Virus record (IMG/VR): IMGVR_UViG_2526164628_000008
Source of the DNA: a virus
Lineage: Duplodnaviria > Heunggongvirae > Uroviricota > Caudoviricetes
DNA length: 29,070 bases
Reading direction: 5' to 3' (one strand)
A model generated the notes under the pieces. The model did no database searches and was not told where the DNA came from. It saw only the letters and a program-made list of their open reading frames with translations. Made by a program: the position numbers and the translations under genes. Positions 1 to 29,070 of this stretch are shown one piece after another. Each line of letters opens with the position of its first letter. The stretch's first letter is position 1.

Positions 1-389
1 GATGTTTTTCAATAAAGACATACTTCATTTCAGGCGCTTCGCGAAGTATGTCGCGGCCTTTTGGAGGATAGCCAGCTCTTCATCCCGTTCTGCCAGCTGG
101 CGTTTGAGACGTGCAATCTCGGTAGACATCTCCAGTTCACGTTCAGAAGACGTCTGCTGATTTTGCTGTTTACTGCGCCAGTTGTAGAGCTGTGATTCAT
201 ACAGGCTGAGTTCACGGGCTGCGGCAGTAACACCGATGCGTTCAGCAAGCTTCAGGGCTTCACTGCGAAATTCAGGCGAATGCTGTTTACGGGGTTTTTT
301 ACTGGTTGATACTGTTTTTGTCATGTGAGTCACCTCTGACTGAGAGTTTACTCACTTAGCCGCGTGTCCACTATTGCTGGGTAAGATCA
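1..389 (-). mobile_element. IS3 (partial copy; the element continues beyond the window start)
   Basis: Terminal sequence TGATCTTACCCAGCAATAGTGGACACGCGGCTAAGTGAG on the minus strand ending at 389 matches the IS3 end as I recall it; encodes the IS3 OrfA protein. The OrfB part lies left of the window. Confidence 0.8.
25..324 (-). CDS. insE: IS3 OrfA transposase subunit (InsE-like), helix-turn-helix protein
   Basis: Translation MTKTVSTSKKPRKQHSPEFRSEALKLAERIGVTAAARELSLYESQLYNWRSKQQ... recognised as IS3-family OrfA. Start may be the upstream ATG at 331-333 (MTHMTK...). Confidence 0.8.
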   Translation of the reverse strand: MTKTVSTSKKPRKQHSPEFRSEALKLAERIGVTAAARELSLYESQLYNWRSKQQNQQTSSERELEMSTEIARLKRQLAERDEELAILQKAATYFAKRLK

Positions 390-1153
390 GTCAGTTTTAA
401 CACGTTAGCCTCTAATGTTTTGCTTGGCCACCCTGTTTCTTGTGCACCACATTGACCAAGAATTCCATAGTTGCTAGTTTGACCATCAGGAAATTCCACT
501 GTAGCAATTAGGTCAAACCCAGCATCACCAGATGTGGGAGCTTTATTTATTTCCCTTGTGTTTAAACTACAAACTCCAAGATCTTTTCCTAAAATTTGTA
601 GAGCATTCCGAAGATTCGTTCCATAATATTTTTGCCTATCATCGGAGTTAGCATCAAAAATTCTTACGGTGCCATGTGCAGGTAAGAGAGAAATCATTGC
701 AACTTTACATACTCTGGCAAAGCTCTTTGCCCAACGTTGTGCTGCTCCTCTAATCGACTTAAAGGATCTAAGTCTAGAGCAACAAAGGAGAAAAACATAT
801 ATTCTTTGTTGTTGGTTTAGATTTTCTTTAATAATTATCTCATCACCTGAAATTATAAATGGATATATCTTTCCAAGAGCGCTTTCTCTATATTCGAGTT
901 GTGTCCAAACATCTTCTAGTTGCTCTTCAAAACGATCATTTCTCTCTGCGTCTCCATCAATTTCTTCTTCAAAATTACATTCTTCATCAATTTCTTCAAC
1001 ACTTGTCATGCCGAATTTTCTTACTGAATCTAAATCATTTTTATGCAGAGAGTTACGTCCGATATAATTAATCACCGTGAGTAACTCGGCTAAATCTGCA
1101 AACAAATGGGGAGAGTTGGGATGCATAACTCCTACTTCAAAAGTCATCATCAC
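371..1153 (-). CDS. hypothetical protein (cargo gene B); acidic N-terminal half; last 5 codons and stop supplied by the IS3 terminus, so the native C-terminus is lost or altered
   Basis: 260-aa ORF, AT-rich, overlaps the upstream gene by 17 nt (operon). The stop TAG at 371-373 lies inside the IS3 inverted repeat (IS3 ends at 389). Start uncertain among three tandem ATGs at 1145-1153 or the ATG near 1126 preceded by AGGAG. Confidence 0.55.
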   Translation of the reverse strand: MMMTFEVGVMHPNSPHLFADLAELLTVINYIGRNSLHKNDLDSVRKFGMTSVEEIDEECNFEEEIDGDAERNDRFEEQLEDVWTQLEYRESALGKIYPFIISGDEIIIKENLNQQQRIYVFLLCCSRLRSFKSIRGAAQRWAKSFARVCKVAMISLLPAHGTVRIFDANSDDRQKYYGTNLRNALQILGKDLGVCSLNTREINKAPTSGDAGFDLIATVEFPDGQTSNYGILGQCGAQETGWPSKTLEANVLKLTDLTQQ

Positions 1154-2258
1154 CTCTGCTATTTTTCTCTGCTATTTCAGAACCTATAAGCTTAATATGT
1201 TTATTGATTCTTCGTGCTACTTCATGAGCCTGTCTATCATACTCTACTGTGGCAACCATGCCTGCTGCATCTATCAAAGCCGCTTCAACTTGATAAAGTA
1301 ACTGGAGAAAGTCCTTAGTAATATCAGATGTCAATTGGTAGGCCACTGCGAGTGGAGCCCCCATTCGGAATTGCTCCAATGCCTTAGGGCTACTAACAAC
1401 AGCAGCTAATTCTCTTAAATTACGTGACTCTCCAACACGAGTTTTTTTATCCTCACCTTTTTTATATAACCACTCAGTTAGCTCTTTTATTTCTTTGTTC
1501 TTTAAGCTATTAGAGTTGATAATAGGATGACTTGGTATTGTGTCTCCATCGTCTTCGATTGAAACTCCGACAAATTGGCCTAACCGCTCATCAGCAAGTG
1601 CTGTTGATAATACTGAAAATTTAATCGTTTCTTCATCTAGTTTTTCAATACCATAAAAATCATTTTCTTTAATGATTTCATACACCGCTAAAGCGTCTAG
1701 GTTACGCTTGATATGATCCCTACGACTGCCAATAGCTCTGGCAACCTCATAGTAGCGTAGCATCGGATCCTGATTTGCATTGGTATAATCAAAAAGCTGT
1801 TTAATATATCGAGCTTTTGATAAGGGCTCCCATTGTTTGACACCAGTAATATGTCTGAAACCAAGATACGGAAGAATCTCTTCTCTTGTTTGGCGCTCAA
1901 TGACAGGAACACGATCGACTGTATGTTTTGCATTTGATGCAATTTCTCGTAGTCGAGCACTTGGATTTTCACATAGTGTCGGATCGCGTAATAATTTAAC
2001 TGCGGATAGGCGACGGTTTCCTTCAACTACAATGTACTTCCCCGGCGCGACACTGTCAGGAATGACAATCAATGGTTCTCCAGGGAAAAAACCATTTTCC
2101 GCAATAGCACTCATTAGATCTTCGATAGATGTTGAGGTTGCTATGTAGTTAATCATTCCCAATTGGTCACGAGACACGCCTTCAGGAAGTCTTGGGTTTT
2201 CTGTGTCAAGTTCCAAATCATCTAGCGGAACATAAAGTATTTCTGAATCAGCAATCAT
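1137..2258 (-). CDS. ParB N-terminal domain (ParB/Srx fold) protein, cargo gene A
   Basis: 373-aa ORF with GGAG ribosome-binding site 7 nt upstream. N-terminal region (LYVPLDDLELDTENPR ... PLIVIPDSVAPGKYIVVEGNRRLSAVKLL) fits the ParB N-terminal pattern including a GxRRxxA box (EGNRRLSA). C-terminal ~270 aa unrecognised. Confidence 0.6.
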   Translation of the reverse strand: MIADSEILYVPLDDLELDTENPRLPEGVSRDQLGMINYIATSTSIEDLMSAIAENGFFPGEPLIVIPDSVAPGKYIVVEGNRRLSAVKLLRDPTLCENPSARLREIASNAKHTVDRVPVIERQTREEILPYLGFRHITGVKQWEPLSKARYIKQLFDYTNANQDPMLRYYEVARAIGSRRDHIKRNLDALAVYEIIKENDFYGIEKLDEETIKFSVLSTALADERLGQFVGVSIEDDGDTIPSHPIINSNSLKNKEIKELTEWLYKKGEDKKTRVGESRNLRELAAVVSSPKALEQFRMGAPLAVAYQLTSDITKDFLQLLYQVEAALIDAAGMVATVEYDRQAHEVARRINKHIKLIGSEIAEKNSRGDDDF

Positions 2259-2315
2259 CTGGATCTCCGTTGAACATGTCTACGAGAAGGAGCACAAAGT
2301 TATTTCATAACATGC

Positions 2316-2321
2316 AATATA
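2316..2321 (-). promoter_or_regulatory. putative -10 element (TATATT on minus strand) for the cargo operon
   Basis: AT-rich region upstream of the ParB-like gene; TATATT hexamer about 58 nt upstream of the ATG. No clear -35. Confidence 0.2.
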
Positions 2322-2484
2322 CTCATTCTGTAGCCATAAATGAATTATTCATGATGTAAGATTCGCGTTGATGTGCGTGAATTCGCAAGTAATTTTATAG
2401 CAAGGTTTGATTGGGTATCGTTAGCACTGGCGCGGTTTCAACGTATTCATGCACCTGCATTAAAACCGACCCATGAAGCGGGCG

Positions 2485-2503
2485 GGCGAGGCGGGGAAAG
2501 CAC
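2485..2503. other. cos site, 19-nt cohesive-end sequence of P2-type phages
   Basis: GGCGAGGCGGGGAAAGCAC matches the P2 cohesive-end sequence as I recall it; located in the ORF-free GC-rich region just upstream of the portal gene Q, where cos lies in P2. Confidence 0.7.
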
Positions 2504-2672
2504 TGCGCGCTGGCGGTGGTGCTGATTTTATTTTTTCAGCGTCTGAGCGCGTCGTGATGGCGTTTAGATTGTTAGCCGGGGCGTTGGTGTGTCTGCGGGC
2601 TGTTTTGTGCGGTGGTGAGCGTGTGAGAGCGTGATGGCGGGTTGTAAAAAAGCCGCCCGCAGGCGGCGATGT

Positions 2673-3707
2673 TCAGCCGTTGTCAGTGTCCAGTGAGTAG
2701 TTTTTAAAGCGGATGACCTCCTGACCGAGCCAGCCGTTTATCTCGCGGATCCTGTCCTGTAACGGGATAAGTTCATTGCGGACAAAGACCTTTGCCACTT
2801 TCTCAATATCACCCAGCGACCCGACGTTCTCCGGCTTGCCACCCATCAACTGAAAGGGGATGCGGTGCGCGTCCAGCAGGTCAGCGGCGCTGGCTTTTTT
2901 GATATTAAAAAAATCGTCCTTCGTCGCCACTTCACTGAGGGGGATAATTTTAATGCCGTCGGCTTTCCCCTGTGGGGCATAGAGAAACAGGTTTTTAAAG
3001 TTGTTGCGGCCTTTCGACTTGACCATGTTTTCGCGAAGCATTTCGATATCGTTGCGGTCCTGCACGGCATCGGTGACGTACATGATGTATCCGGCATGTG
3101 CGCCGTTTTCGTAATACTTGCGGCGGAACAGCGTGGCCGACTCATTCAGCCAGGCAGAGTTAAGGGCGCTGAGATATTCCGGCAGACCGTACAGCTCCTG
3201 ATTAATATCCGGCTCCAGCAGGTGAAACACGGAGCCGGGCGCGAAAGGTGTCGGCTCGTTGAAAGACGGCACCCACCAGTAAACATCCTCCTCCACGCCA
3301 CGACGGGTATATTTGGCCGGTGAGGTTTCCAGTCTGATGACCTTACCGGTGGTGCTGTAACGCTTTTCCAGAAACGCATTACCGAACACCAGAAAATCCA
3401 GCACAAAACGGCTGAAATCCTGCTGGGAAAGCCACGGGTGCGGGATAAACGTTGAAGCCAGAATATTACGTTTGACGTAAATCGGTGAGCTGTGATGCAC
3501 GGCAGCACGCAGACTTTTTGCCAGGCCGGTAAAGCTGACCGGTGGCTCATACCATCTGCCGTTACTGATGCACTCGACGTAATCCAGAATGTCACGCCGG
3601 TCGAGTACCGGTACCGGCTCACCAAAGGTGAATGCCTCCATTTTCGGGGCGCTGGCGGTCATTGTTTTTGCCGCAGGTTGCGGTGTTTTCCCTTTTTTCT
3701 TGCTCAT
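2673..3707 (-). CDS. Q: portal protein Q (P2 gpQ)
   Basis: 344 aa, same length and recognisable sequence as P2 Q (MSKKKGKTPQPAAKT...); adjacent to P on the same strand. Confidence 0.9.
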   Translation of the reverse strand: MSKKKGKTPQPAAKTMTASAPKMEAFTFGEPVPVLDRRDILDYVECISNGRWYEPPVSFTGLAKSLRAAVHHSSPIYVKRNILASTFIPHPWLSQQDFSRFVLDFLVFGNAFLEKRYSTTGKVIRLETSPAKYTRRGVEEDVYWWVPSFNEPTPFAPGSVFHLLEPDINQELYGLPEYLSALNSAWLNESATLFRRKYYENGAHAGYIMYVTDAVQDRNDIEMLRENMVKSKGRNNFKNLFLYAPQGKADGIKIIPLSEVATKDDFFNIKKASAADLLDAHRIPFQLMGGKPENVGSLGDIEKVAKVFVRNELIPLQDRIREINGWLGQEVIRFKNYSLDTDNG

Positions 3708-5479
3708 CAGTAAAACTCCAGAATGGTGGATGTCAGCGGAGTGCTGATACCGGCGGTGAGTGGCTCATTTAACAGGGCGTGCATGGTCGCCCAGGCGAGG
3801 TCGGCGTGGCTGGCTTCCTCGCTGCGGCTGGCCTCATAGGTGGCACTGCGTCCGCTGCTGGTCATGGTCTTGCGGATAGCCATAAACGAGCTGGTGATGT
3901 CGGTGGCGCTGACGTCATATTCCAGACAGCCACGGCGGATAACGTCTTTTGCCTTGAGCACCATTGCGGTTTTCATTTCCGGCGTGTAGCGGATATCGCG
4001 CGCGGCGGGATAGAACGAGCGCACGAGCTGGAACACGCCGACACCGAGGCCGGTGGCATCAATTCCGATGTATTCGACGTTGTATTTCTCGGTGAGTTTG
4101 CGGATGGATTCAGCCTGAGTGGCAAAGTCCATGCCTTTCCACTGGTGACGCTCAAGGATCCTGAATTTGCCACCGGCCACCACCGGCGGTGCCAGTACCA
4201 CGCATCCGGCGCTGTCGCCACGGTGTGACGGGTCGTAACCAATCCATACCGGGCGGGAGCCGAACGGATTCGCGGCAAACGGCGCATAGTCTTCCCATTC
4301 TTCCAGCGTGTCGACCATGCAGCGTTGCAGCTCCTCGAACGGGAACACCGATGCCTTGTCGTCAACAAATTCACACATGAACAGGTTTTTAAAATCGTCG
4401 GCGCTGTTTTCACGTTTGAGCTGCTCAATGTCGAACAGCGTGCAGCCGCCTTTCAGGGCATCCTCAATGGTGACAATCTGCCGCCACTGGCCGTCCGCAC
4501 AGAGAAGACCTCCGGCAAGGGCGTTATGACTGACGTCGATTTCCACGCGTTCGGCGGCGCTGGCGCGTCCCCGGTTGAACAGTTCACCCGACCAGAACGG
4601 GTAGGCGTCGTGCGCCAGCGTGGACGGGGTGGAGAAATAGGTCGAGCGCAGGTGACTCTGTGAGGCCATACCTGATGCCACCTTACGCAGTACCTGAAAA
4701 TTCGGGATCCAGAAAATCTCGTCGACGTACAGGTCGCCGTTATGGCTCTGTGCGGTGTTGGAGTTGGTGCCGAGAAAAATCAGTTTTGCGCCGTTATTGC
4801 CCAGGACAATCGGGTCACCGGTCAGGTCAACGTCAACCAGTCGGGCAAAGGCGATGATGTATTCGCGGAACACATACGCCTGCGTTTTACTGGCCGACAG
4901 AAAAATCTGGTTATGACCGGTTTTCAGGGCGCGCAGCAGCGCCTCGCGGGAAAAATAAAACGTCGCGCCAATCTGGCGGGATTTCAGGATATCGCGGATG
5001 CGGTGCTCAAGCCCGGCGCGATACCAGTGCAACTGATATTCGAAAGACTGCTCAAAGAAAATCTGCTCCAGCTTTTCGATAGCCTCGTCGCTGAAAAAAT
5101 TCTTTTTCGGTTTGCGCCGCCCGCCTTTGTTGCGGTTAGCGATGTTCGGATTAAGGTCTGCCTCGTTGCCGGTCTGGTTGTAGCGGTTTACCCGTGCCAG
5201 TCGTTCAATCTGGCGTCCGAGCAGGTCAATTTCCTTGAAGTCACCGCCGGTTTTCTGCGGTTTTATGATGAGCTGGGTCAGCCGCGCTTCCAGACTCATT
5301 TCGACACGGCTGATGGGGGCAACGCTGTCCCAGCCGTCGCGCTGTTTCCAGCTCTGCACCGTCGGGCGTTTCATCTGCAACATGGCGGCAATCTGCGGCA
5401 CGGAAAACCCCTGCCAGTACAGCAGCGCCGCCTGACGACGCGGGTCGTGTAAAAGAGTGGTGTCTGTGGTGATGGTCAT
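3707..5479 (-). CDS. P: terminase large subunit / ATPase P (P2 gpP)
   Basis: 590 aa from MTITTDTTLLHDPRRQAALLYWQGF...; the ORF track's upstream in-frame ATG adds 10 aa. P2-like order Q-P divergent from O. Confidence 0.9.
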   Translation of the reverse strand: MTITTDTTLLHDPRRQAALLYWQGFSVPQIAAMLQMKRPTVQSWKQRDGWDSVAPISRVEMSLEARLTQLIIKPQKTGGDFKEIDLLGRQIERLARVNRYNQTGNEADLNPNIANRNKGGRRKPKKNFFSDEAIEKLEQIFFEQSFEYQLHWYRAGLEHRIRDILKSRQIGATFYFSREALLRALKTGHNQIFLSASKTQAYVFREYIIAFARLVDVDLTGDPIVLGNNGAKLIFLGTNSNTAQSHNGDLYVDEIFWIPNFQVLRKVASGMASQSHLRSTYFSTPSTLAHDAYPFWSGELFNRGRASAAERVEIDVSHNALAGGLLCADGQWRQIVTIEDALKGGCTLFDIEQLKRENSADDFKNLFMCEFVDDKASVFPFEELQRCMVDTLEEWEDYAPFAANPFGSRPVWIGYDPSHRGDSAGCVVLAPPVVAGGKFRILERHQWKGMDFATQAESIRKLTEKYNVEYIGIDATGLGVGVFQLVRSFYPAARDIRYTPEMKTAMVLKAKDVIRRGCLEYDVSATDITSSFMAIRKTMTSSGRSATYEASRSEEASHADLAWATMHALLNEPLTAGISTPLTSTILEFY

Positions 5480-5652
5480 GAATACCTCGCCGTGATGAAT
5501 ACACGGCAAGGCTACTGAGTCGTGCCCTGCGATTCGCTAAGGTGCTGTTGTGTCAGTGATAAGCCATCCGGGACTGATGGCGGAGGATGCGCATCGTCGG
5601 GAAACTGATGCCGACATGTGACTCCTCTAATCACTATTCAGGACTCCTGACA
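5480..5652. promoter_or_regulatory. divergent late-promoter region between P and O (expected Ogr-dependent PP/PO)
   Basis: Inferred from P2 organisation only; I could not identify the activator-binding dyad confidently in the sequence. Confidence 0.35.
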
Positions 5653-6507
5653 ATGGCAAAAAAAGTCTCAAAATTCTTTCGTATCGGCGTTGAGGGTGAC
5701 ACCTGTGACGGGCGTGTCATCAGTGCGCAGGATATTCAGGAAATGGCCGAAACCTTTGACCCGCGTGTCTATGGTTGCCGCATTAACCTGGAACATCTGC
5801 GCGGCATCCTGCCTGACGGCATTTTTAAACGTTATGGCGATGTGGTCGAACTGAAGGCCGAAAAGATTGACGATGATTCGGCGCTGAAAGGCAAATGGGC
5901 GCTGTTTGCGAAAATCACCCCGACCGATGACCTTATCGCGATGAACAAGGCCGCGCAGAAGGTCTATACCTCAATGGAAATTCAGCCGAACTTTGCCAAT
6001 ACCGGCAAATGTTATCTGGTGGGTCTGGCCGTCACCGATGACCCGGCAAGCCTCGGCACGGAATACCTGGAATTCTGCCGCACGGCAAAACACAACCCCC
6101 TGAACCGCTTCAAATTAAGCCCTGAAAACCTGATTTCAGTGGCAACGCCCGTTGAGCTGGAATTTGAAGACCTGCCTGAAACCGTGTTCACCGCCCTGAC
6201 CGAAAAGGTGAAATCCATTTTTGGCCGCAAACAGGCCAGTGATGACGCCCGTCTGAATGACGTGCATGAAGCGGTGACCGCTGTTGCTGAACATGTGCAG
6301 GAAAAGCTGAGTGCCACTGAGCAGCGCCTCGCTGAGATGGAAACCGCTTTTTCCGCACTTAAGCAGGATGTGACTGACAGGGCGGATGAAACCAGCCAGG
6401 CATTCACCCGCCTGAAAAACAGTCTCGACAGCACCGAAAGTCTGACCCAGCAGCGCCGCAGCAAGGCCACCGGCGGTGGCGGTGATGCCCTGATGACGAA
6501 CTGCTGA
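5653..6507 (+). CDS. O: capsid scaffolding protein O (P2 gpO)
   Basis: 284 aa from MAKKVSKFFRIGVEGDTCDGRV...; the ORF track start at 5587 is an upstream in-frame extension. Confidence 0.9.
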   Translation: MAKKVSKFFRIGVEGDTCDGRVISAQDIQEMAETFDPRVYGCRINLEHLRGILPDGIFKRYGDVVELKAEKIDDDSALKGKWALFAKITPTDDLIAMNKAAQKVYTSMEIQPNFANTGKCYLVGLAVTDDPASLGTEYLEFCRTAKHNPLNRFKLSPENLISVATPVELEFEDLPETVFTALTEKVKSIFGRKQASDDARLNDVHEAVTAVAEHVQEKLSATEQRLAEMETAFSALKQDVTDRADETSQAFTRLKNSLDSTESLTQQRRSKATGGGGDALMTNC

Positions 6508-6565
6508 CCGGCGTCAGTCAGTCCGGGAAAACCTTCACGATTAACCCTTAATTTCAGGAAAAACT

Positions 6566-7639
6566 ATGCGCCAGGAAACCCGCTTTAAATTTAATGCCTA
6601 CCTGTCCCGTGTTGCCGAACTGAACGGCATCGACGCCGGTGATGTGTCGAAAAAATTCACCGTTGAACCGTCGGTCACCCAGACCCTGATGAACACCATG
6701 CAGGAGTCCTCTGACTTTCTGACCCGCATCAACATTGTGCCGGTCAGCGAAATGAAAGGGGAAAAAATTGGTATTGGTGTCACCGGCTCCATCGCCAGCA
6801 CCACCGACACCGCCGGTGGCACCGAGCGTCAGCCGAAGGACTTCTCGAAGCTGGCGTCAAACAAGTACGAATGCGACCAGATTAACTTCGATTTTTATAT
6901 CCGCTACAAAACGCTTGACCTGTGGGCGCGTTATCAGGATTTCCAGCTCCGTATCCGTAACGCCATTATCAAACGCCAGTCCCTTGATTTCATCATGGCC
7001 GGTTTTAACGGCGTGAAGCGTGCCGAAACCTCTGACCGCAACAGCAATCCGATGTTGCAGGATGTGGCGGTCGGCTGGCTGCAGAAATACCGCAATGAAG
7101 CCCCGGCGCGCGTGATGAGCAAGGTCACTGACGAGGAAGGGCGCACCACCTCTGAGGTTATCCGCGTGGGTAAGGGCGGTGATTATGCCAGCCTTGACGC
7201 ACTGGTGATGGATGCGACCAACAACCTGATTGAACCGTGGTATCAGGAAGACCCTGACCTTGTGGTGATTGTGGGACGTCAGCTACTGGCGGACAAATAT
7301 TTCCCCATCGTCAACAAGGAGCAGGACAACAGCGAAATGCTGGCCGCTGACGTCATCATCAGCCAGAAACGCATCGGTAACCTGCCGGCGGTACGCGTCC
7401 CGTACTTCCCGGCGGATGCGATGCTCATCACGAAGCTGGAAAACCTGTCCATCTACTACATGGATGACAGCCATCGCCGCGTGATTGAGGAAAACCCGAA
7501 ACTCGACCGCGTGGAGAACTACGAGTCAATGAACATTGATTACGTGGTGGAAGACTACGCCGCCGGTTGTCTGGTGGAAAAAATTAAGGTCGGTGATTTC
7601 TCCACACCGGCTAAGGCGACCGCAGAGCCGGGAGCGTAA
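6566..7639 (+). CDS. N: major capsid protein N (P2 gpN)
   Basis: 357 aa, MRQETRFKFNAYLSRVAELNGIDAG...; position after O. Confidence 0.92.
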   Translation: MRQETRFKFNAYLSRVAELNGIDAGDVSKKFTVEPSVTQTLMNTMQESSDFLTRINIVPVSEMKGEKIGIGVTGSIASTTDTAGGTERQPKDFSKLASNKYECDQINFDFYIRYKTLDLWARYQDFQLRIRNAIIKRQSLDFIMAGFNGVKRAETSDRNSNPMLQDVAVGWLQKYRNEAPARVMSKVTDEEGRTTSEVIRVGKGGDYASLDALVMDATNNLIEPWYQEDPDLVVIVGRQLLADKYFPIVNKEQDNSEMLAADVIISQKRIGNLPAVRVPYFPADAMLITKLENLSIYYMDDSHRRVIEENPKLDRVENYESMNIDYVVEDYAAGCLVEKIKVGDFSTPAKATAEPGA

Positions 7640-7642
7640 CCG

Positions 7643-8386
7643 ATGACGAGTCCCGCACAGCGCCACATGATGCGGGTCTCGGCAGCGATGACCGCGCAGC
7701 GGGAAGTCGCCCCGCTGCGACATGCAACTGTCTATGAGCAGATGCTGGTTAAGCTCGCCGCAGACCAGCGCACACTGAAAGCGATTTATTCAAAAGAGCT
7801 GAAGGCCGCGAAAAAACGCGAACTGCTGCCGTTCTGGTTGCCGTGGGTGAACGGCGTGCTGGAGCAGGGCAAAGGTGCACAGGATGACATTCTGATGACG
7901 GTCATGCTGTGGCGTCTGGATACCGGCGATATTGCCGGTGCGCTGGAGATTGCCCGTTATGCCCTGAAGTACGGTCTGACCATGCCGGGTAAACACCGCC
8001 GCACCCCGCCGTACATGTTCACCGAGGAGGTGGCGCTCGCGGCCATGCGTGCTCACGCTGCCGGTGAGTCTGTGGATACCCGCCTGCTGACGGAGACCCT
8101 TGAACTGACCGCCACGGCTGACATGCCTGATGAAGTGCGCGCAAAGCTGCACAAAATCACCGGTCTGTTTCTGCGTGACGGTGGTGATGCCGCAGGGGCG
8201 CTGGCGCACCTGCAACGTGCGACACAGCTCGACTGTCAGGCAGGCGTCAAAAAAGAGATTGAACGACTGGAGCGGGAGCTGAAACCGAAGCCGGAGCCGC
8301 AGCCCAAAGCGGCCACCCGTACCCCGCGTAAGACCCGGAGCGTGACACCGGCAAAACGTGGACGCCCGAAAAAGAAAGCCAGTTAA
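7643..8386 (+). CDS. M: terminase small subunit / endonuclease M (P2 gpM)
   Basis: 247 aa, position and sequence consistent with P2 M. Confidence 0.88.
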   Translation: MTSPAQRHMMRVSAAMTAQREVAPLRHATVYEQMLVKLAADQRTLKAIYSKELKAAKKRELLPFWLPWVNGVLEQGKGAQDDILMTVMLWRLDTGDIAGALEIARYALKYGLTMPGKHRRTPPYMFTEEVALAAMRAHAAGESVDTRLLTETLELTATADMPDEVRAKLHKITGLFLRDGGDAAGALAHLQRATQLDCQAGVKKEIERLERELKPKPEPQPKAATRTPRKTRSVTPAKRGRPKKKAS

Positions 8387-8485
8387 CAACCGAATGCGCC
8401 CCGCGCCAGGGCGGCACGCCGGTCAGTGAGGGTGAATCACCTGACACTGCACCGGCGTCCACCGCCCGACTTTTCAGAGGTGGTC

Positions 8486-8995
8486 ATGATGACGCTGATT
8501 ATTCCGCGAAAGGAGGCTCCCGTGTCCGGTGAGGGTACGGTGGTCATCCCGCAACCGGCAGGCGACGAGCCGGTGATTAAAAACACGTTCTTTTTTCCCG
8601 ATATCGACCCGAAGCGCGTCCGGGAACGTATGCGCCTTGAGCAGACCGTCGCCCCCGCCCGTCTGCGTGAGGCTATCAAGTCAGGCATGGCGGAGACAAA
8701 TGCGGAGCTGTACGAGTATCGCGAACAGAAAATTGCCGCCGGTTTTACGCGTCTGGCGGACGTCCCGGCGGACGACATCGACGGTGAAAGCATCAAAGTT
8801 TTTTACTACGAGCGCGCCGTGTGTGCGATGGCGACCGCGTCGCTTTATGAGCGTTATCGCGGCGTGGATGCCAGTGCGAAAGGCGACAAGAAGGCCGACA
8901 GCATTGACAGCACCATTGATGAACTGTGGCGGGATATGCGCTGGGCGGTGGCGCGTATCCAGGACAAGCCGCGCTGCATCGTGAGTCAAATCTGA
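8486..8995 (+). CDS. L: head completion/stabilisation protein L (P2 gpL)
   Basis: 169 aa from MMTLIIPRKEAPVSGEG...; stop overlaps the X start (ATGA-type overlap at 8993-8997). Confidence 0.88.
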   Translation: MMTLIIPRKEAPVSGEGTVVIPQPAGDEPVIKNTFFFPDIDPKRVRERMRLEQTVAPARLREAIKSGMAETNAELYEYREQKIAAGFTRLADVPADDIDGESIKVFYYERAVCAMATASLYERYRGVDASAKGDKKADSIDSTIDELWRDMRWAVARIQDKPRCIVSQI

Positions 8996-9198
8996 TGAAG
9001 ACCTTTGCGCTACAGGGCGACACGCTCGACGCCATTTGTGTCCGGTATTACGGGCGCACTGAGGGCGTGGTTGAGACCGTGCTCGCCGCAAATCCGGGAC
9101 TGGCTGAACTGGGTGCGGTGCTGCCACACGGCACCGCCGTCGAACTGCCCGACGTTCAGACCGCGCCCGTGGCTGAAACTGTCAATCTGTGGGAGTAA
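8995..9198 (+). CDS. X: tail protein X (P2 gpX)
   Basis: 67 aa, MKTFALQGDTLDAICVRYYGRTEGVVETVLAANPGLAELG...; internal start within the longer ORF 8926-9198. Confidence 0.85.
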   Translation: MKTFALQGDTLDAICVRYYGRTEGVVETVLAANPGLAELGAVLPHGTAVELPDVQTAPVAETVNLWE

Positions 9199-9201
9199 CG
9201 C

Positions 9202-9483
9202 ATGACAGCAGAAGAAAAAAGCGTCCTGTCGCTTTTCATGATTGGGGTGCTGATTGTTGTCGGCAAGGTGCTTGCCGGTGGTGAACCCATCACCCCGCGT
9301 CTGTTTATCGGGCGCATGTTGCTCGGCGGTTTTGTCTCGATGGTTGCCGGTGTTGTTCTGGTGCAGTTTCCTGACCTGTCACTGCCTGCGGTGTGCGGCA
9401 TCGGTTCCATGCTGGGTATCGCCGGTTATCAGGTGATTGAGATTGCCATTCAGCGCCGCTTTAAGGGCAGGGGGAAACCGTAA
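9202..9483 (+). CDS. Y: holin Y (P2 gpY)
   Basis: 93 aa with hydrophobic transmembrane segments; immediately precedes the endolysin. Confidence 0.88.
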   Translation: MTAEEKSVLSLFMIGVLIVVGKVLAGGEPITPRLFIGRMLLGGFVSMVAGVVLVQFPDLSLPAVCGIGSMLGIAGYQVIEIAIQRRFKGRGKP

Positions 9484-9980
9484 TGCCGGTAATTAACACG
9501 CATCAGAATATCGCCGCCTTTCTCGACATGCTGGCCGTGTCCGAAGGGACGGCGAATCATCCGCTGACGAAAAACCGGGGCTATGACGTGATAGTCACCG
9601 GACTGGACGGAAAGCCGGAAATTTTCACCGACTACAGTGACCACCCGTTCGCGCATGGCCGACCGGCGAAGGTGTTTAACCGTCGCGGTGAAAAATCCAC
9701 GGCCTCCGGTCGCTATCAGCAGCTTTACCTGTTCTGGCCGCACTACCGCAAACAGCTTGCCCTGCCGGATTTCAGTCCGTTGTCACAGGACAGGCTCGCC
9801 ATTCAGTTGATCCGCGAACGCGGTGCACTGGATGACATCCGGGCGGGACGCATTGAGCGCGCCATTTCACGCTGTCGCAATATCTGGGCGTCCCTGCCGG
9901 GTGCCGGTTACGGTCAGCGTGAGCATTCACTGGAAAAACTGGTCACCGTCTGGCGTACCGCCGGCGGCGTACCGGCTTAA
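9483..9980 (+). CDS. K: endolysin K (P2 gpK)
   Basis: 165 aa, MPVINTHQNIAAFLDMLAVSEGT...; lysis cassette position. Confidence 0.9.
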   Translation: MPVINTHQNIAAFLDMLAVSEGTANHPLTKNRGYDVIVTGLDGKPEIFTDYSDHPFAHGRPAKVFNRRGEKSTASGRYQQLYLFWPHYRKQLALPDFSPLSQDRLAIQLIRERGALDDIRAGRIERAISRCRNIWASLPGAGYGQREHSLEKLVTVWRTAGGVPA

Positions 9981-9994
9981 ACGGAGTAAACACC

Positions 9995-10420
9995 ATGAAG
10001 AAATTATCCCTTTCACTGATGCTGAACGTGTCGCTGGCGCTGATGCTGGCACTGTCCCTGATTTACCCGCAGAGCGTGGCCGTCAGTTTTGTCGCCACCT
10101 GGGCGATTCTGGCGACGGTTATCTGTGTGGTTGCCGGTGGTGTCGGCGTGTATGCCACGGAGTATGTGCTGGAACGCTACGGGCGGGAGCTGCCGCCGGA
10201 ATCGCTGGCCGTGAAGATTGTCACGTCGCTGTTTTTGCAGCCGGTGCCGTGGCGCAGACGGGCGGCGGCTCTGGTGGTGATGGTGGCGACGTTTATCTCG
10301 CTGGTCGCTGCCGGGTGGATTTTTACCGCGCTGATTTATCTCGTGGCGTCGCTGTTTTTCCGGTTGATGCATACGGCCTGCCGCCAGCGTCTTGAGGGGC
10401 GGAAACCATGTCAAGGCTGA
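9995..10420 (+). CDS. lysA: lysis timing/membrane protein LysA
   Basis: 141 aa, strongly hydrophobic multi-pass membrane protein after K. Confidence 0.85.
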   Translation: MKKLSLSLMLNVSLALMLALSLIYPQSVAVSFVATWAILATVICVVAGGVGVYATEYVLERYGRELPPESLAVKIVTSLFLQPVPWRRRAAALVVMVATFISLVAAGWIFTALIYLVASLFFRLMHTACRQRLEGRKPCQG

Positions 10421-10851
10421 TGACTGTGCTGATTGTGTTGTTATCGCTGGCGGTGGCCGGTCTGTTTCTGGTGAAACACAAAAATGCCAGCCTGCGCGCC
10501 TCGCTGGACAGGGCGAACAATGTCGCCAGTGGGCAGCAGACGACCATCACCATGCTGAAAAATCAGCTTCATGTTGCACTCACCAGGGCAGACAAAAACG
10601 AGCTGGCGCAGGTGGCACTGCGTCAGGAACTGGAGAACGCCGCGAAGCGTGAAGCACAGCGCGAGAAAACCATCACGAGGTTACTCAATGAAAACGAAGA
10701 TTTTCGCCGCTGGTACGGTGCTGACCTGCCTGATGCTGTGCGCCGGTTGCACCAGCGCCCCGCCTGCACCGACGCCAGTGATTGTCCACAACGCCTGCCC
10801 GAAAGTGAGTCTTTGCCCGATGCCGGGCAGCGACCCGCAGACGAACGGTGA
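10408..10851 (+). CDS. lysB: LysB, Rz-like inner-membrane spanin subunit
   Basis: N-terminal transmembrane anchor followed by a charged coiled-coil-like region; contains the embedded lysC in the +1 frame. Exact start uncertain. Confidence 0.85.
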   Translation: MSRLMTVLIVLLSLAVAGLFLVKHKNASLRASLDRANNVASGQQTTITMLKNQLHVALTRADKNELAQVALRQELENAAKREAQREKTITRLLNENEDFRRWYGADLPDAVRRLHQRPACTDASDCPQRLPESESLPDAGQRPADER

Positions 10852-10978
10852 TTTAAGTGCCGATATCCGGCAGCTTGAGAACGCGCTGGCGCGCTGTGCC
10901 AGCCAGGTAAAAATGATTAAACACTGTCAGGACGAAAACGATGCTCAAACCCGACAGCCTGCGCAGGGCGCTGACTGA
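10688..10978 (+). CDS. lysC: LysC, Rz1-like outer-membrane lipoprotein spanin subunit
   Basis: 96 aa from MKTKIFAAGTVLTCLMLCAGC with lipobox LCAGC, proline-rich mature part; begins inside lysB in a different frame. Confidence 0.85.
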   Translation: MKTKIFAAGTVLTCLMLCAGCTSAPPAPTPVIVHNACPKVSLCPMPGSDPQTNGDLSADIRQLENALARCASQVKMIKHCQDENDAQTRQPAQGAD

Positions 10979-11408
10979 TGCCGTCACGGTGCTGAAAACT
11001 AACCCCGATATGCTGCGGATATTCGTGGATAACGGGAGTATTGCCTCCACACTGGCGGCGTCGCTGTCATTCGAAAAGCGTTACACGCTCAATGTGATTG
11101 TGACCGACTTTACCGGTGATTTTGACCTGCTCATTGTGCCGGTGCTGGCGTGGCTGCGGGAAAATCAGCCCGACATCATGACCACCGACGAAGGCCAGAA
11201 AAAGGGCTTCACGTTTTATGCAGACATCAACAATGACAGCAGCTTTGATATCAGTATCAGCCTGATGCTGACCGAGCGCACGCTGGTCAGTGAGGTGGAC
11301 GGCGCACTGCATGTGAAGAATATCCCGGAACCCCCGCCGCCGGAGCCGGTCACCCGCCCGATGGAGCTTTATATCAATGGCGAACTGGTGAGTAAGTGGG
11401 ATGAATGA
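10941..11408 (+). CDS. R: tail completion protein R (P2 gpR)
   Basis: 155 aa, position and sequence consistent with P2 R. Confidence 0.88.
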   Translation: MLKPDSLRRALTDAVTVLKTNPDMLRIFVDNGSIASTLAASLSFEKRYTLNVIVTDFTGDFDLLIVPVLAWLRENQPDIMTTDEGQKKGFTFYADINNDSSFDISISLMLTERTLVSEVDGALHVKNIPEPPPPEPVTRPMELYINGELVSKWDE

Positions 11409-11853
11409 GTTTAAGCGTTTTGAAGACCGGCTGACCGGGCTGATTGAATCGCTGTCACCGTCAGGGCGTCGGCGACTGAGCGCCGAACTGGCGAAACGTC
11501 TGCGTCAGAGTCAGCAGCGTCGGGTGATGGCACAGAAAGCCCCGGACGGCACCCCCTACGCGCCACGTCAGCAGCAGAGCGCCAGAAAAAAGACCGGTCG
11601 CGTTAAGCGAAAAATGTTTGCGAAACTTATCACCAGTCGTTTTTTGCATATCCGCGCCAGCCCGGAACAGGCATCAATGGAATTTTACGGCGGGAAGTCG
11701 CCGAAAATCGCCAGTGTGCATCAGTTCGGTCTGTCGGAAGAAACCCGGAAAGACGGTAAGAAAATTGATTATCCGGCGCGTCCTCTGCTCGGCTTTACCG
11801 GTGAGGATGTGCAGATGATTGAAGAGATTATCCTGGCTCACCTCGACCGTTAG
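11401..11853 (+). CDS. S: tail completion protein S (P2 gpS)
   Basis: 150 aa, overlaps the R stop; P2 order. Confidence 0.88.
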   Translation: MNEFKRFEDRLTGLIESLSPSGRRRLSAELAKRLRQSQQRRVMAQKAPDGTPYAPRQQQSARKKTGRVKRKMFAKLITSRFLHIRASPEQASMEFYGGKSPKIASVHQFGLSEETRKDGKKIDYPARPLLGFTGEDVQMIEEIILAHLDR

Positions 11854-11919
11854 TTGTGCCATTCCCGACACCTCATCGTCACATTGCCGCCGGTATGACC
11901 CGGCGGCATCCTTCCCGTT

Positions 11920-12555
11920 ATGAACACTCTCGCAAATATTCAGGAACTCGCGCGCGCACTGCGCAACATGATACGCACCGGCATTATCGTCGAAACCGAC
12001 CTTAACGCCGGTCGCTGCCGTGTGCAGACCGGCGGCATGTGCACCGACTGGCTTCAGTGGCTGACCCATCGCGCCGGACGTTCGCGCACGTGGTGGGCAC
12101 CTTCCGAGGGGGAACAGGTGCTGATTCTGGCCGTGGGCGGTGAACTCGACACAGCGTTCGTTCTGCCGGGGATTTATTCCGGTGATAACCCCGCGCCGTC
12201 TGCGTCGGCGGATGCCCTGCATATCCGTTTCCCTGACGGGGCGGTGATTGAGTATGAACCCGAAACCAGTGCACTCACGGTAAGCGGAATTAAAACGGCC
12301 AGCGTGACGGCTTCTGATTCTGTTACTGCCACGGTGCCGGTGGTCATGGTGAAAGCGTCAACCCGCATCACCCTGGACACCCCGGAGGTGGTCTGCACCA
12401 ACAGACTGATTACCGGCGCGCTGGAAGTGCAGAAGGGCGGGACGATGCGCGGCAACATTAAACATACCGGCGGTGAACTCTCATCAAACGGTAAGGTACT
12501 GCATACCCATAAACACCCCGGCGACAGCGGCGGCACAACCGGGAGTCCTCTATGA
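11920..12555 (+). CDS. V: baseplate spike protein V (P2 gpV)
   Basis: 211 aa, MNTLANIQELARALRNMIRTGIIVE... Confidence 0.9.
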   Translation: MNTLANIQELARALRNMIRTGIIVETDLNAGRCRVQTGGMCTDWLQWLTHRAGRSRTWWAPSEGEQVLILAVGGELDTAFVLPGIYSGDNPAPSASADALHIRFPDGAVIEYEPETSALTVSGIKTASVTASDSVTATVPVVMVKASTRITLDTPEVVCTNRLITGALEVQKGGTMRGNIKHTGGELSSNGKVLHTHKHPGDSGGTTGSPL

Positions 12556-12899
12556 CAGCGCGTTATCTTGGAATGAATCGCAGTGATGGCCTGACTGTCA
12601 CTGACCTTGAGCATATCAGCCAGAGTATCGGCGATATCCTGCGCACGCCGGTCGGCTCACGGGTGATGCGTCGTGATTACGGCTCATTGCTGGCGTCAAT
12701 GATTGACCAGCCGCAGACCCCGGCGCTTGAGTTACAGATTAAGGTCGCCTGTTACATGGCGGTGCTGAAATGGGAACCCCGCGTCACCCTGTCATCCGTC
12801 ACCACTGAGCGCAGTTTTGACGGGCGAATGACAGTTACGTTAACCGGCCAGCACAACGACACCGGCCAGCAACTTTCGTTAACCATCCCTGTGAGTTGA
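12552..12899 (+). CDS. W: baseplate protein W (P2 gpW)
   Basis: 115 aa, overlaps the V stop. Confidence 0.9.
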   Translation: MTARYLGMNRSDGLTVTDLEHISQSIGDILRTPVGSRVMRRDYGSLLASMIDQPQTPALELQIKVACYMAVLKWEPRVTLSSVTTERSFDGRMTVTLTGQHNDTGQQLSLTIPVS

Positions 12900-12903
12900 A
12901 ACC

Positions 12904-13812
12904 ATGCCGATTATCGACCTGAACCAGCTACCCGCACCGGATGTGGTCGAGGAGCTGGACTTTGAAACCATTCTTGCCGAACGCAAGGCGACACTGATTT
13001 CCCTTTACCCGGAAGACCAGCAGGAGGCGGTTGCCCGTACCCTGACGCTGGAATCCGAGCCTCTCGTCAAACTGCTGGAGGAAAATGCTTATCGTGAGCT
13101 TATCTGGCGTCAGCGTGTGAATGAGGCCGCACGGGCGGTAATGCTGGCCTGTGCCGCCGGTAATGACCTTGATGTGATTGGTGCCAATTACAACACCACA
13201 CGCCTGATTATCACCCCGGCAGATGATTCGACCATCCCGCCGACACCGGCAGTGATGGAATCTGACACCGATTATCGGCTGCGTATTCAGCAGGCGTTTG
13301 AAGGTTTAAGCGTCGCCGGGTCGGTGGGTGCCTATCAGTATCATGGCCGCAGTGCCGACGGGCGTGTCGCGGATATCTCTGTCACCAGTCCGTCTCCGGC
13401 CTGCGTCACTATCTCTGTGCTGTCACGTGAAAATAACGGTGTCGCATCCGAAGACCTGCTGGCGGTGGTGCGTAACGCCCTTAATGGCGAGGACGTCAGG
13501 CCGGTGGCCGACCGCGTGACCGTGCAGTCTGCCGCCATCGTTGAATACCAGATAAACGCCACGCTTTACCTTTACCCTGGTCCCGAAAGCGAACCCATAC
13601 GCGCTGCCGCCGTGAAAAAACTGGAAGCGTATATCACGGCACAGCACCGGCTGGGGCGCGATATCCGACTGTCTGCCATTTATGCCGCTTTGCATGTGGA
13701 AGGCGTGCAGCGTGTCGAACTGGCTGCACCGCTGGCCGATATCGTGCTTAACAGCACGCAGGCGTCTTTCTGTACCGAATACCGCGTCGTGACCGGAGGC
13801 TCGGATGAGTGA
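12904..13812 (+). CDS. J: baseplate protein J (P2 gpJ)
   Basis: 302 aa, position after W. Confidence 0.9.
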   Translation: MPIIDLNQLPAPDVVEELDFETILAERKATLISLYPEDQQEAVARTLTLESEPLVKLLEENAYRELIWRQRVNEAARAVMLACAAGNDLDVIGANYNTTRLIITPADDSTIPPTPAVMESDTDYRLRIQQAFEGLSVAGSVGAYQYHGRSADGRVADISVTSPSPACVTISVLSRENNGVASEDLLAVVRNALNGEDVRPVADRVTVQSAAIVEYQINATLYLYPGPESEPIRAAAVKKLEAYITAQHRLGRDIRLSAIYAALHVEGVQRVELAAPLADIVLNSTQASFCTEYRVVTGGSDE

Positions 13813-14335
13813 TTCGCGACTGCTGCCGACCGGCTCATCACCGCTTGAAGTCGCCGCCGCAAAAGCCTGTGCGGAAATTGAAAAAACGCCGGTCAGGATT
13901 CGTGAGCTGTGGAACCCGGACACCTGCCCGGCAAATTTGCTGCCGTGGCTGGCGTGGGCGTTTTCGGTCGACAGATGGGATGAAAAGTGGCCGGAAGCGA
14001 CAAAACGCGCCGTTATCCGCGATGCCTATTTCATCCACTGTCATAAAGGCACTATCGGCGCAATCCGGCGTGTGGTGGAGCCGCTCGGCTATCTCATCAA
14101 CGTGACGGAGTGGTGGGAAAACAGTGACCCGCCCGGCACCTTCCGGCTCGATATTGGTGTACTGGAAAGCGGTATCACAGAGGCAATGTATCAGGAAATG
14201 GAACGGCTGATTGCTGATGCCAAACCTGCAAGCCGTCACCTTATTGGTCTGAACATTACCCGGGACATTCCCGGCTACCTGTTCGCCGGTGGTGTGGCTT
14301 ATGACGGCGATGTAATTACGGTTTACCCCGGATAA
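13805..14335 (+). CDS. I: baseplate protein I (P2 gpI)
   Basis: 176 aa, overlaps the J stop. Confidence 0.9.
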   Translation: MSDSRLLPTGSSPLEVAAAKACAEIEKTPVRIRELWNPDTCPANLLPWLAWAFSVDRWDEKWPEATKRAVIRDAYFIHCHKGTIGAIRRVVEPLGYLINVTEWWENSDPPGTFRLDIGVLESGITEAMYQEMERLIADAKPASRHLIGLNITRDIPGYLFAGGVAYDGDVITVYPG

Positions 14336-14345
14336 GTGAGGAATA

Positions 14346-15538
14346 ATGAGCACAAAATTCAGAACCGTTATCACCACTGCCGGTGCAGCAAAGCTGGCAG
14401 CGGCAACCGCGCCGGGAGGGCGGAAGGTCAACATTACCACGATGGCCGTCGGGGATGGCGGTGGTAAATTGCCTGTCCCGGATGCCGGACAGACCGGGCT
14501 TATCCACGAAGTCTGGCGACATGCGCTGAACAAAATCAGCCAGGACAAACGAAACAGTAATTATATTATCGCAGAGCTGGTTATTCCGCCGGAGGTGGGC
14601 GGTTTCTGGATGCGTGAGCTTGGCCTGTACGATGATGCGGGAACGTTAATTGCCGTGGCGAACATGGCCGAAAGTTATAAGCCAGCTCTTGCCGAAGGCT
14701 CAGGGCGTTCGCAGACCTGCCGCATGGTCATCATCGTCAGCAGTGTGGCCTCAGTGGAGCTGACCATTGACACCACAACGGTGATGGCGACGCAGGATTA
14801 CGTTGATGACAAAATTGCAGAGCACGAACAGTCACGACGTCACCCGGACGCCTCGCTGACCGCAAAAGGTTTTACTCAGTTAAGCAGTGCGACCAACAGC
14901 ATGTCTGAAATGCTTGCCGCAACGCCAAAAGCCGTTAAGACGGTAATGGATGAAACGAACAAGAAAGCGCCATTAAACAGCCCTGTACTGACCGGAACGC
15001 CAACGACGCCAACTGCGCGACAGGGAACGAATAATACTCAGATCGCAAACACGGCTTTCGTTATGGCCGCGATTGCCGCCCTTGTAGACTCGTCGCCTGA
15101 CGCACTGAATACGCTGAACGAGCTGGCGGCGGCGCTGGGCAATGACCCGAATTTTGCTACCACCATGACTAATGCGCTTGCGGGTAAGCAACCGAAAGAT
15201 GCTACCCTGACGGCGCTGGCGGGGCTTGCTACTGCGGCAGACAGGTTTCCGTATTTTACGGGGAATGATGTTGCCAGCCTGGCAACCCTGACAAAAGTCG
15301 GGCGGGATATTCTGGCTAAATCGACCGTTGCCGCCGTTATCGAATATCTCGGTTTACAGGAAACGGTAAACCGAGCCGGGAACGCCGTGCAAAAAAATGG
15401 CGATACCTTGTCCGGTGGACTTACTTTTGAAAACGACTCAATCCTTGCCTGGATTCGAAATACTGACTGGGCGAAGATTGGATTTAAAAATGATGCCGAT
15501 GGTGACACTGATTCATTCATGTGGTTTGAAACGGGGGA
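14346..15538 (+). pseudogene. H: tail fibre protein H, 5' fragment (interrupted by IS2)
   Basis: N-terminal region MSTKFRTVITTAGAAKLAAATAPGG... is P2 H-like. The reading frame runs into the IS2 end at 15539 and continues as IS2-derived sequence to a stop at 15710. Confidence 0.88.
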
Positions 15539-15549
15539 TGGATTTGCCC

Positions 15550-16455
15550 CTATATTTCCAGACACCTGTTATCACTTAACCCATTACTGGCCTGCTGCCG
15601 CAGATATTCCCGTGGCGAGCGATAACCCAGTGCACTATGCGGATGCCATTCGTTATAATGCTCGAACGCCTCTGCAAGGTTCTTTGCTGCCGTTAACCCG
15701 TCTGGTTTAGGCATGATACTGATGTAGTCACGCTTTATCGTTTTCACGAAGCTCTCTGCTATGCCGTTACTCTCCGGACTCCGCACCGCCGTGTTCTTCG
15801 GTTCAAGCCCCAACATCCGGGCAAACTGCCGTGTTTCATTAGCCCGGTAGCATGAACCATTATCCGTCAGCCACTCTACTGGAGACGCCGGAAGCTCGTT
15901 GCCGAAGCGGCGTTCCACCGCTCCCAGCATTACGTCCTGTACTGTTTCACTGTCGAAGCCGCCCGTAGTGACTGCCCAGTGCAGTGCCTCACGGTCACAG
16001 CAGTCCAGCGCGAACGTGACTCGCAGTTTTTCTCCGTTATCACAGCGGAACTCGAACCCGTCAGAGCACCATCGTTGATTGCTTTCTTTCACGGCCACTT
16101 TGCCAGTATGTGCCCGTTTCGATGGCGGTACAGCGGTTTTTCGCTCAAGCAACAGCGCATTCTGGCGCATGATCCGGTAAACACGTTTGGCATTGATCGC
16201 AGGCATACCATCAAGTTCGGCCTGTCTGCGAAGCAGCGCCCATACCCGACGATAACCATACGTGGGCAGCTCTCCGATAACATGGTGTATACGGAGAAGC
16301 ACATCCGTATCATCTGAGTGACGGCTGCGGCGACCATCTTTCCAGTCATCGGTTCGTCTGAGAATTACGTGCAACTGCGCACGCGACACCCGGAGACAAC
16401 GGCTGACTAAGCTTACTCCCCATCCCCGGGCAATAAGGGCGCGTGCGCTATCCAC
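15550..16455 (-). CDS. insD: IS2 transposase OrfB (InsD)
   Basis: 301 aa, [30 protein letters not shown]...; integrase-core (DDE) transposase of IS2. Confidence 0.92.
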
Positions 16456-16778
16456 TTTTTTGCACGCCCGTATTCAACGGCTTCTTTAAGGAGTTCATTT
16501 TCCATCGTTTTTTTGCCGAGCAGGCGCTGGAGTTCTTTAATCTGCTTCATGGCAGCAGCAAGTTCAGAGGCAGGAACGACCTGCTCTCCTGCGGCCACAG
16601 CAGTAAGACTTCCCTCCTGGTATTGCTTGCGCCAGAGAAATAACTGGCTGGCTGCCACACCGTGTTGCCGGGCAACAAGGGAGACCGTCATTCCCGGTTC
16701 AAAACTCTGCTGAACAATAGCGATCTTTTCCTGTGTAGTACGCCGTCTGCGTTTCTCCGGTCCTAAGACATCAATCAT
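16413..16778 (-). CDS. insC: IS2 OrfA (InsC)
   Basis: 121 aa from [29 protein letters not shown]...; GGAG ribosome-binding site upstream. The ORF track's longer version starts outside a plausible start. Confidence 0.92.
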
Positions 16779-16874
16779 CTGCTCTCCAATGACTAGTCTA
16801 AAAACTAGTATTAAGACTATCACTTATTTAAGTGATATTGGTTGTCTGGAGATTCAGGGGGCCAGTCTAGGGGA

Positions 16875-17703
16875 TAACGGCAATGAATATTTCAAATGGA
16901 GAAGCCGCCAGAGTACTACAACAAAAGACCTGATGAATCTTAAATGGGATGCTTTGTATGTTCTTGTCAATGCCATTGTAAATGGCGAAGTCATATCAAA
17001 ATCAGCAAACGGCCTACGTATTGCTTATGGTAATTACGGATTCTTTATTCGTAATGATGGTTCAAATACATACTTCATGTTGACAAACTCCGGTGACAAC
17101 ATGGGGACTTATAACGGATTAAGGCCATTATGGATTAATAACGCTACTGGCGCTGTTTCGATGGGGCGTGGCCTTAATGTTTCAGGGGAGACGCTTTCAG
17201 ACCGTTTTGCTATTAACAGCAGTAATGGTATGTGGATTCAGATGCGCGATAACAACGCTATCTTTGGGAAAAATATAGTTAACACTGATAGCGCTCAGGC
17301 GTTGCTTCGCCAGAATCACGCTGACCGCAAGTTCATGATAGGTGGACTGGGGAACAAGCAATTTGGCATCTACATGATTAATAACTCAAGGACAGCCAAT
17401 GGCACCGATGGTCAGGCGTACATGGATAATAACGGTAACTGGCTTTGTGGCTCGCAAGTTATTCCCGGCAACTATGGCAATTTTGATTCCAGATATGTGA
17501 AAGATGTTCGACTTGGTTCACAGCAATATTATGGAGTTAACAACTGGCAAACATGGAATTTCCAGTGCCCGTCAGGTCATGTATTGTCTGGTATTAATGT
17601 TCAGGATACAGGGTCCAACTCTGCCGATAATATAGCGGGCGTTTATTACAGACCCGTTCAAAAGTATATAAATGGCACCTGGTATAATGTAGCGAGCGTT
17701 TAA
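16875..17703 (+). pseudogene. H: tail fibre protein H, 3' fragment (receptor-binding part, no own start)
   Basis: Removing IS2 and one GGGGA copy joins ...WFETGD to NGNEYFKW... in frame, giving a 673-aa H (P2 H is about 669 aa). Confidence 0.88.
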
Positions 17704-26423: not shown

Positions 26424-26504
26424 ATCCTCAATTTGCCTGCTGCTTAATGCATTGCAGATGATTTGCTTCCGTTATACTAGCGTCAGTTGATAGCGGGAGT
26501 ATTT

Positions 26505-28606: not shown

Positions 28607-29070
<464 letters not shown>

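Follow-up and report, generated by a model that had tools for sequence, protein, structure and literature searches.

An IS3 terminus truncates gene B of a three-gene cassette in the replication endonuclease/portal hotspot of a P2-like prophage

The DNA analysed here, called the window throughout, is the whole 29,070-nt stretch of IMG/VR record IMGVR_UViG_2526164628_000008. It carries a P2-like prophage whose left side, as sequenced, begins within an insertion sequence. Two cargo genes, A and B, lie between this element and the portal gene, in a known P2 hotspot delimited by the replication endonuclease and portal genes (PMC9519451). The features at the left end of the window, each with its basis where one applies, are the following.

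1–389, minus strand: terminal 389 nt of IS3, the orfA-proximal (IRL) end (389/389 identity to the 1258-bp IS3)
25–324, minus strand: IS3 orfA, a 99-aa HTH transposase component, on the strand of cargo genes A and B (PF01527; ATG at 324 from the sequence)
351–389, minus strand: 39-nt terminal inverted repeat of IS3 (repeat pair of the complete copy aligned to the window)
371–1147, minus strand: chimeric truncated gene B′, 258 aa (alignment to 329-aa orthologues; breakpoint 389/390; translation)
390–392, no strand: GTC, the first three native bases beside IS3 and the candidate 3-bp target triplet (uninterrupted target in TW10590)
1137–2258, minus strand: cargo gene A, 373 aa, intact, ParB/Srx fold
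2259–2672, no strand: intergenic, from the cargo to portal gene Q, the right boundary of the replication-endonuclease/portal hotspot (portal position; hotspot of PMC9519451)
2673–3707: P2 portal protein (Q)

The element at the left edge was compared with a complete 1258-bp IS3 copy (positions 843–2100 of E. coli locus L005), annotated as "IS3-like element IS3 family transposase". Window positions 1–389 match reference positions 870–1258 with 389/389 identity. The remaining 869 of 1258 bp run leftward past the window edge, and the first-pass annotation was right by simple geometry in placing the other IS3 end outside the window. A 39-nt imperfect terminal inverted repeat pair, 72% complementary, was defined directly on the reference copy. 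The window-side arm is CTCACTTAGCCGCGTGTCCACTATTGCTGGGTAAGATCA in window orientation, with its last base at 389; it ends ...GGGTAAGATCA (...GATCA) and, from outside, reads 5′-TGATCTTACCC... Alignment to complete IS3 thus bears out the first-pass claim that the inverted repeat ends at this base.

Members of the IS3 family have imperfect terminal inverted repeats ending 5′-TG...CA-3′. They encode orfA (HTH) and, after it, orfB (DDE/rve), with a programmed −1 frameshift linking the two; in the window element the frameshift site, orfB and the second repeat arm fall to the left of the sequenced edge. In the window orfA is intact and matches HTH_Tnp_1 (PF01527, E 5.7e-10), and the reference copy, identical over the window part, carries a programmed-frameshift annotation. 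The window element agrees with IS3 of E. coli in its sequenced part, its terminal repeat, the HTH_Tnp_1 domain of orfA and a break at the terminal base. There is no difference in kind from canonical IS3; the insertion site alone is new, being absent from 5426 complete E. coli genomes. Nucleotide comparison of the window with complete IS3 found no IS3 segment besides 1–389.

The reference copy itself lacks a 3-bp direct repeat (TTG at 840–842 vs GTA at 2101–2103) and adjoins a truncated gene for an Ig-like-domain protein. Given the differing flanks and the truncated neighbor, this copy has probably undergone rearrangement. Its flank, GTAGTGTTATCAC, resembles the window flank, GTCAGTTTTAACAC, a resemblance that may reflect target preference or chance.

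Similarity to IS-free P2-like prophages begins at exactly 390, placing the DNA break at 389/390. When window positions 1–2700 were compared with complete E. coli genomes, 48 genomes had a match starting at query position 390. On the minus strand gene B reads ...CTG AC|T GAT CTT ACC CAG CAA TAG, where the bar marks the IS3 junction. IS3 supplies the third base of codon T253, the five codons for DLTQQ and the stop (16 coding nt + 3). The chimeric product B′ is therefore 258 aa long, with native residues 1–253 (window 1147–390) followed by DLTQQ and the stop (389–371). Gene B is annotated as starting at ATG 1147, whereas the mechanical ORF list gave the GTG at 1153; an exact-protein look-up found no record of the 260-aa GTG-start version. 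The first reading of the sequence had described a gene B frame that runs 16 nt into IS3, with DLTQQ and the stop encoded by the element, and all of its coordinates and counts were right. In annotation, the proper label for the 258-aa ORF is disrupted gene rather than protein.

The junction was recovered from independent data. A 3225-nt contig of the Logan assembly of SRR254188, present in 3 samples, matches window 362–3586 exactly over its whole length. Its 28 nt of IS3 are joined at the same base, and it encodes the same 258-aa product, so the junction is not peculiar to one assembly. An exact look-up of the chimeric protein returned one Logan contig, ending 28 nt into IS3. A 201-nt junction probe had no match covering the junction in the 5426 complete RefSeq E. 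coli genomes, and exact-pattern scans gave 0 matches in species-representative genomes and 0 in JGI metagenome contigs. Mis-assembly at IS elements is a classic problem, the window starts inside IS3 and ends inside an IS110-family element, and the junction is in no complete RefSeq genome. An artificial join at the repeat is nevertheless extremely unlikely: the independent contig has the same junction base and the same 258-aa product, and the break falls at the exact last base of the IS3 inverted repeat, as transposition predicts. The junction is real.

E. coli TW10590, an enterotoxigenic strain (PMC6446980), carries the same prophage at the same chromosomal site (NZ_CP035850.1) without IS3 in gene B. 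Window 390–29070 differs from it at 2 positions in 28,681 nt (99.993% identical). One difference is a C/T substitution at 9008, inside the phage late region. The other is a run of T8 vs T9 at 26424, between ogr and fieF, which may be a homopolymer sequencing error. By this degree of sequence identity the TW10590 prophage is the pre-insertion allele and the IS3 insertion very recent, because the two prophages are near-identical and TW10590 nonetheless lacks IS3. The uninterrupted target in TW10590 reads ...GGAAATAGGTG GTC AGTTTTAAC... The same genome has five further matches to the IS3-containing query, which are consistent with resident IS3 copies as donors.

Intact gene B is 990 nt long and encodes a 329-aa "hypothetical protein" in the three IS-free E. 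coli prophages inspected. The window protein is identical to that of TW10590 over residues 1–253 and divergent thereafter; 232 nt (76 codons + stop) are cut off. Set against orthologues of IS-free prophages, 76 aa (23% of the protein) are missing, in agreement with the first-pass view that the native C-terminus had been displaced. Homology search detected 252 members of the gene B family, spread over Enterobacterales, Pseudomonas, Burkholderia and methylotrophs, and the homologues are 327–348 aa long in nearly all of the 120 matches listed (of 252). No naturally shortened gene B occurs among the 48 complete E. coli genomes with the cassette described below (0/48).

The segment that was lost is conserved. 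Alignment of 50 family members identified eight invariant residues within it (P269, R273, W279, D292, R293, R295, W314 and F318) and about 11 nearly invariant ones. In the structure model the missing part holds strands 264–267 and 288–291 and helices 293–323 (two strands and three helices in all), mostly at pLDDT 85–96. The 5-aa IS-encoded tail could superficially suggest that IS3 landed just past the natural end of an intact gene B, with nothing functional lost. No other support for this reading was found, and its probability is close to nil: IS-free orthologues are 329 aa long, including the one in the 99.993%-identical prophage, family members listed are nearly all 327–348 aa, and the missing 76 aa are conserved. 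A natural end of gene B at 389/390 had been named beforehand as the refuter and was tested; it is ruled out, since the 329-aa orthologues do not stop there and the lost segment is conserved.

Searches for a family to which gene B belongs returned nothing credible from Pfam, NCBIfam or PADLOC with the intact protein, from Pfam with 50 family members, or from a profile search of PDB sequences. A restriction-endonuclease signal, consistent but weak, came only from structure comparison. Within this weak signal, the longer structural matches (at least 120 residues) are enzymes of the NgoMIV/Cfr10I/SgrAI/AgeI/BsaWI type.

Gene B is the second gene of a cassette. Genes A and B share 11 nt, the 3′ end of the first lying over the start of the second in the manner of an operon; protein A combines an invariant E-G-N-R-R box with a C-terminal half that is helical. 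In IS-free genomes a 314-aa C5 cytosine methyltransferase gene follows in convergent orientation, 7 nt past gene B; in these relatives the methyltransferase matches PF00145 (E 5.2e-65) and TIGR00675 (dcm). The cassette, methyltransferase included, is one uninterrupted 3053-nt piece in 48/48 complete E. coli genomes carrying it. The first-pass annotation had raised the possibility that further hotspot genes were displaced, and this methyltransferase, present beyond gene B in all 48, is one such gene. Cargo genes A and B (390–2258) have a G+C content of 39–42% vs 54–61% in the P2 structural genes and backbone (3001–16000), a compositional contrast consistent with horizontally exchanged hotspot cargo.

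The arrangement of A, B and methyltransferase genes recurs in Pseudomonas, Burkholderia and Salmonella, beside integrases or inside prophages. By this recurrence near integrases and in prophages, the cassette behaves as a mobile unit. In Methylophilaceae (loci L010, 7165–7929, and L011, 3165–4097) an extra HNH_2-domain gene separates gene B from the methyltransferase, a sign that nuclease genes may be added to the cassette as modules. In E. coli NCTC8623 (locus L015, 2248–3370) gene A is annotated as two ORFs (546 + 600 nt), with gene B and the methyltransferase intact; the split reflects a sequencing error or else a separate frameshift that inactivated the other partner.

The most probable event, with high confidence, is that IS3 transposed into codon 253 of gene B, the second gene of this three-gene cassette, leaving gene B most likely null. 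Canonical IS3 would have entered the gene within the replication endonuclease/portal hotspot of the P2-like prophage and split the last 76 codons from the rest. Translation would then run 16 nt into the inverted repeat, add DLTQQ and stop, with a product of 258 aa vs 329 aa. IS3 makes a 3-bp target-site duplication, and elements of the IS3 family normally insert simply, by copy-out/paste-in transposition. From this usual behavior and the near-identity to TW10590, it is likely that the insertion was of this simple kind and that the rest of gene B and the methyltransferase gene still lie beyond IS3. The left flank would then read ...GGAAATAGGTGGTC|TGATCCTACCCACGTAATATGG... in window orientation, with GTC repeated. 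On the far side of the complete IS3 the last 232 nt of gene B would be followed by the methyltransferase gene.

IS3 could instead mark a larger rearrangement, either an adjacent deletion or recombination between IS3 copies. Gene B would still be truncated, with its 3′ end, the methyltransferase and perhaps early prophage genes away from IS3; the whole cassette, and possibly the prophage replication region, would be gone or relocated. The further matches in TW10590 fit multiple IS3 copies available for recombination. The reference IS3 copy, found without a target duplication and beside a truncated gene, indicates that such events occur, and decay of the prophage is already under way, its tail-fibre gene having taken an IS2-type insertion. 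Against this stand the simple insertions that IS3-family elements normally make and the 2 small changes in 28.7 kb relative to TW10590, which argue for a single recent event. A rearrangement is thus the less likely course, though one with some weight, and simple insertion is the preferred reading.

Either way gene B has lost a strongly conserved segment that is part of the predicted folded core of a putative restriction-endonuclease-like domain, and it is most likely null for that reason. Domains of the PD-(D/E)xK type usually fail to fold once core elements are removed. Conservation and the structure model together make loss of gene B function likely. The first-pass annotation had proposed that the system may be inactivated; with eight invariant residues and modelled core lost, the proposal is well founded, and we infer the same. 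The N-terminal domain is retained in B′, as are the candidate motif residues D165, D208, D212, Q232, K243 and E246. The remaining protein (253 native aa + DLTQQ) might retain or gain function, so that the cassette would be modified rather than off. Such an altered function could be binding of protein A or DNA via the N-terminal helical/winged-helix part, or a deregulated activity. This is improbable: two strands and three helices of high model confidence and eight invariant residues are removed, core removal in domains of this type usually abolishes folding, and no naturally shortened version exists in the 48 complete genomes.

Loss of gene B function is thus preferred, and the insertion probably disables the restriction-modification-like cassette. 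From gene linkage and predicted folds, the cassette is plausibly a defence unit of restriction-modification type, resembling PD-lambda-5, with A and B as the restriction arm, gene B as its putative nuclease and the methyltransferase protecting the host. Should gene B provide the toxicity or restriction, inactivating it would deprive gene A of its partner. If the insertion was simple, an orphan methyltransferase would also remain on the far side of IS3. The strain with the window prophage should not be scored as the carrier of a functional copy of the cassette.

The closest described system is PD-lambda-5, a validated two-gene prophage system listed as "ParB/HEPN, methyltransferase" (Vassallo et al. 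2022, PMC9519451 Table S1). Its authors, who used a host deleted for mrr to clone it, describe it as a compacted RM+Abi system of prophages, and several systems from the same study sit in the same P2 hotspot (PMC9519451). The N-terminal ~190 residues of protein A match PD-Lambda-5_A in PADLOC (E 1.6e-28). The cassette resembles PD-lambda-5 in this ParB-like N-terminal module, in having a methyltransferase partner, here of C5 (Dcm) type, and in being prophage-borne. It differs in gene number, with three genes here (in 48/48 E. coli genomes and four distant taxa) vs two there. Protein A is 373 aa long vs PD-lambda-5 profiles of roughly 430–590 positions, and its C-terminal half has no alignment to the PD-Lambda-5_A profiles and no HEPN match. 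The cassette also has the separate 329-aa restriction-endonuclease-like gene B, for which PADLOC has no model. Identity with PD-lambda-5 was rejected on the third gene and the lack of a HEPN match; the cassette is partly related to it.

Weak GmrSD_N matches were found in 22/45 members of the protein A family. As in GmrSD, BrxU and SspE (DUF262 ParB-like NTPase + nuclease), a ParB/Srx-like domain is paired with a nuclease-like module, and by analogy the pairing suggests nucleotide-controlled DNA cleavage. GmrSD, BrxU and SspE are single polypeptides with a DUF1524/HNH-type nuclease, typically modification-dependent and without a cognate methyltransferase. The cassette, in contrast, has two separate proteins, a PD-(D/E)xK-like predicted fold and a linked methyltransferase. 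A convergent methyltransferase/endonuclease-like pair is also found in Type II restriction-modification systems with C5 methyltransferases (NgoMIV/Cfr10I/SgrAI/AgeI/BsaWI group). This feature, a methyltransferase adjoining the endonuclease-like gene, is observed in the IS-free relatives; in the window strain its expected place is past IS3.

It is possible, though somewhat doubtful, that IS3 interrupted a so far uncharacterised defence cassette of three genes, different from PD-lambda-5 with its two genes and common on Proteobacteria prophages and islands. The cassette would combine, as tentatively, a ParB/Srx-fold nucleotide-switch protein, a family-less restriction-endonuclease-like protein and a C5 methyltransferase. 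On this reading nature has supplied a near-isogenic knock-out (the window strain) and wild type (TW10590), with the nuclease arm removed and an orphan methyltransferase possibly left. No characterisation of the cassette or experiment on it was found in the literature searched.

A known element disrupted a gene here, as IS elements ordinarily do. IS insertions into accessory genes are routine, and the event itself therefore matters little. The more interesting by-product is the cassette, which is conserved, widespread, only partly related to PD-lambda-5 and, by the papers searched, seemingly uncharacterised. The window strain and TW10590, separated by two small changes in 28.7 kb, offer a natural comparison for the function of this ParB-like/endonuclease-like/C5-methyltransferase cassette. 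The visible decay (IS3 in the cargo, an IS2-type element in the tail fibre and an IS110-family element alongside) illustrates the loss of prophage-borne defence cargo.

IS elements occupy both window ends, and a third lies inside. The internal one is a complete 1331-bp IS2-type element at 15539–16869, flanked by a perfect 5-bp duplication, GGGGA (15534–15538 and 16870–16874). It encodes two ORFs.

15550–16455, minus strand: IS2-type orfB, with rve domain
16413–16823, minus strand: IS2-type orfA

This second transposase was considered as a recombining IS3 copy and rejected, having no nucleotide similarity to IS3 and belonging to the IS2-type element. The P2 tail-fibre gene is split by it into 14346–15710 and 16789–17703. 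TW10590 has the identical insertion, and its tail-fibre gene is annotated as a pseudogene. As the IS2-type insertion is common to both strains, the prophage had probably become defective before IS3 arrived. At the right end, 28825–29070, just after pfkA, is the N-terminus of an IS110-family transposase (DEDD_Tnp_IS110, E 3.2e-10), annotated as IS621 in TW10590.

A 299-aa ORF at 18448–19347 had no Pfam or PADLOC match. It lies in an AT-rich patch (42–45% G+C) between the tail-fibre assembly and tail sheath genes. This is the position of the second P2 defence hotspot, the Z/fun locus (PMC9519451), and the ORF is a candidate uncharacterised cargo gene.
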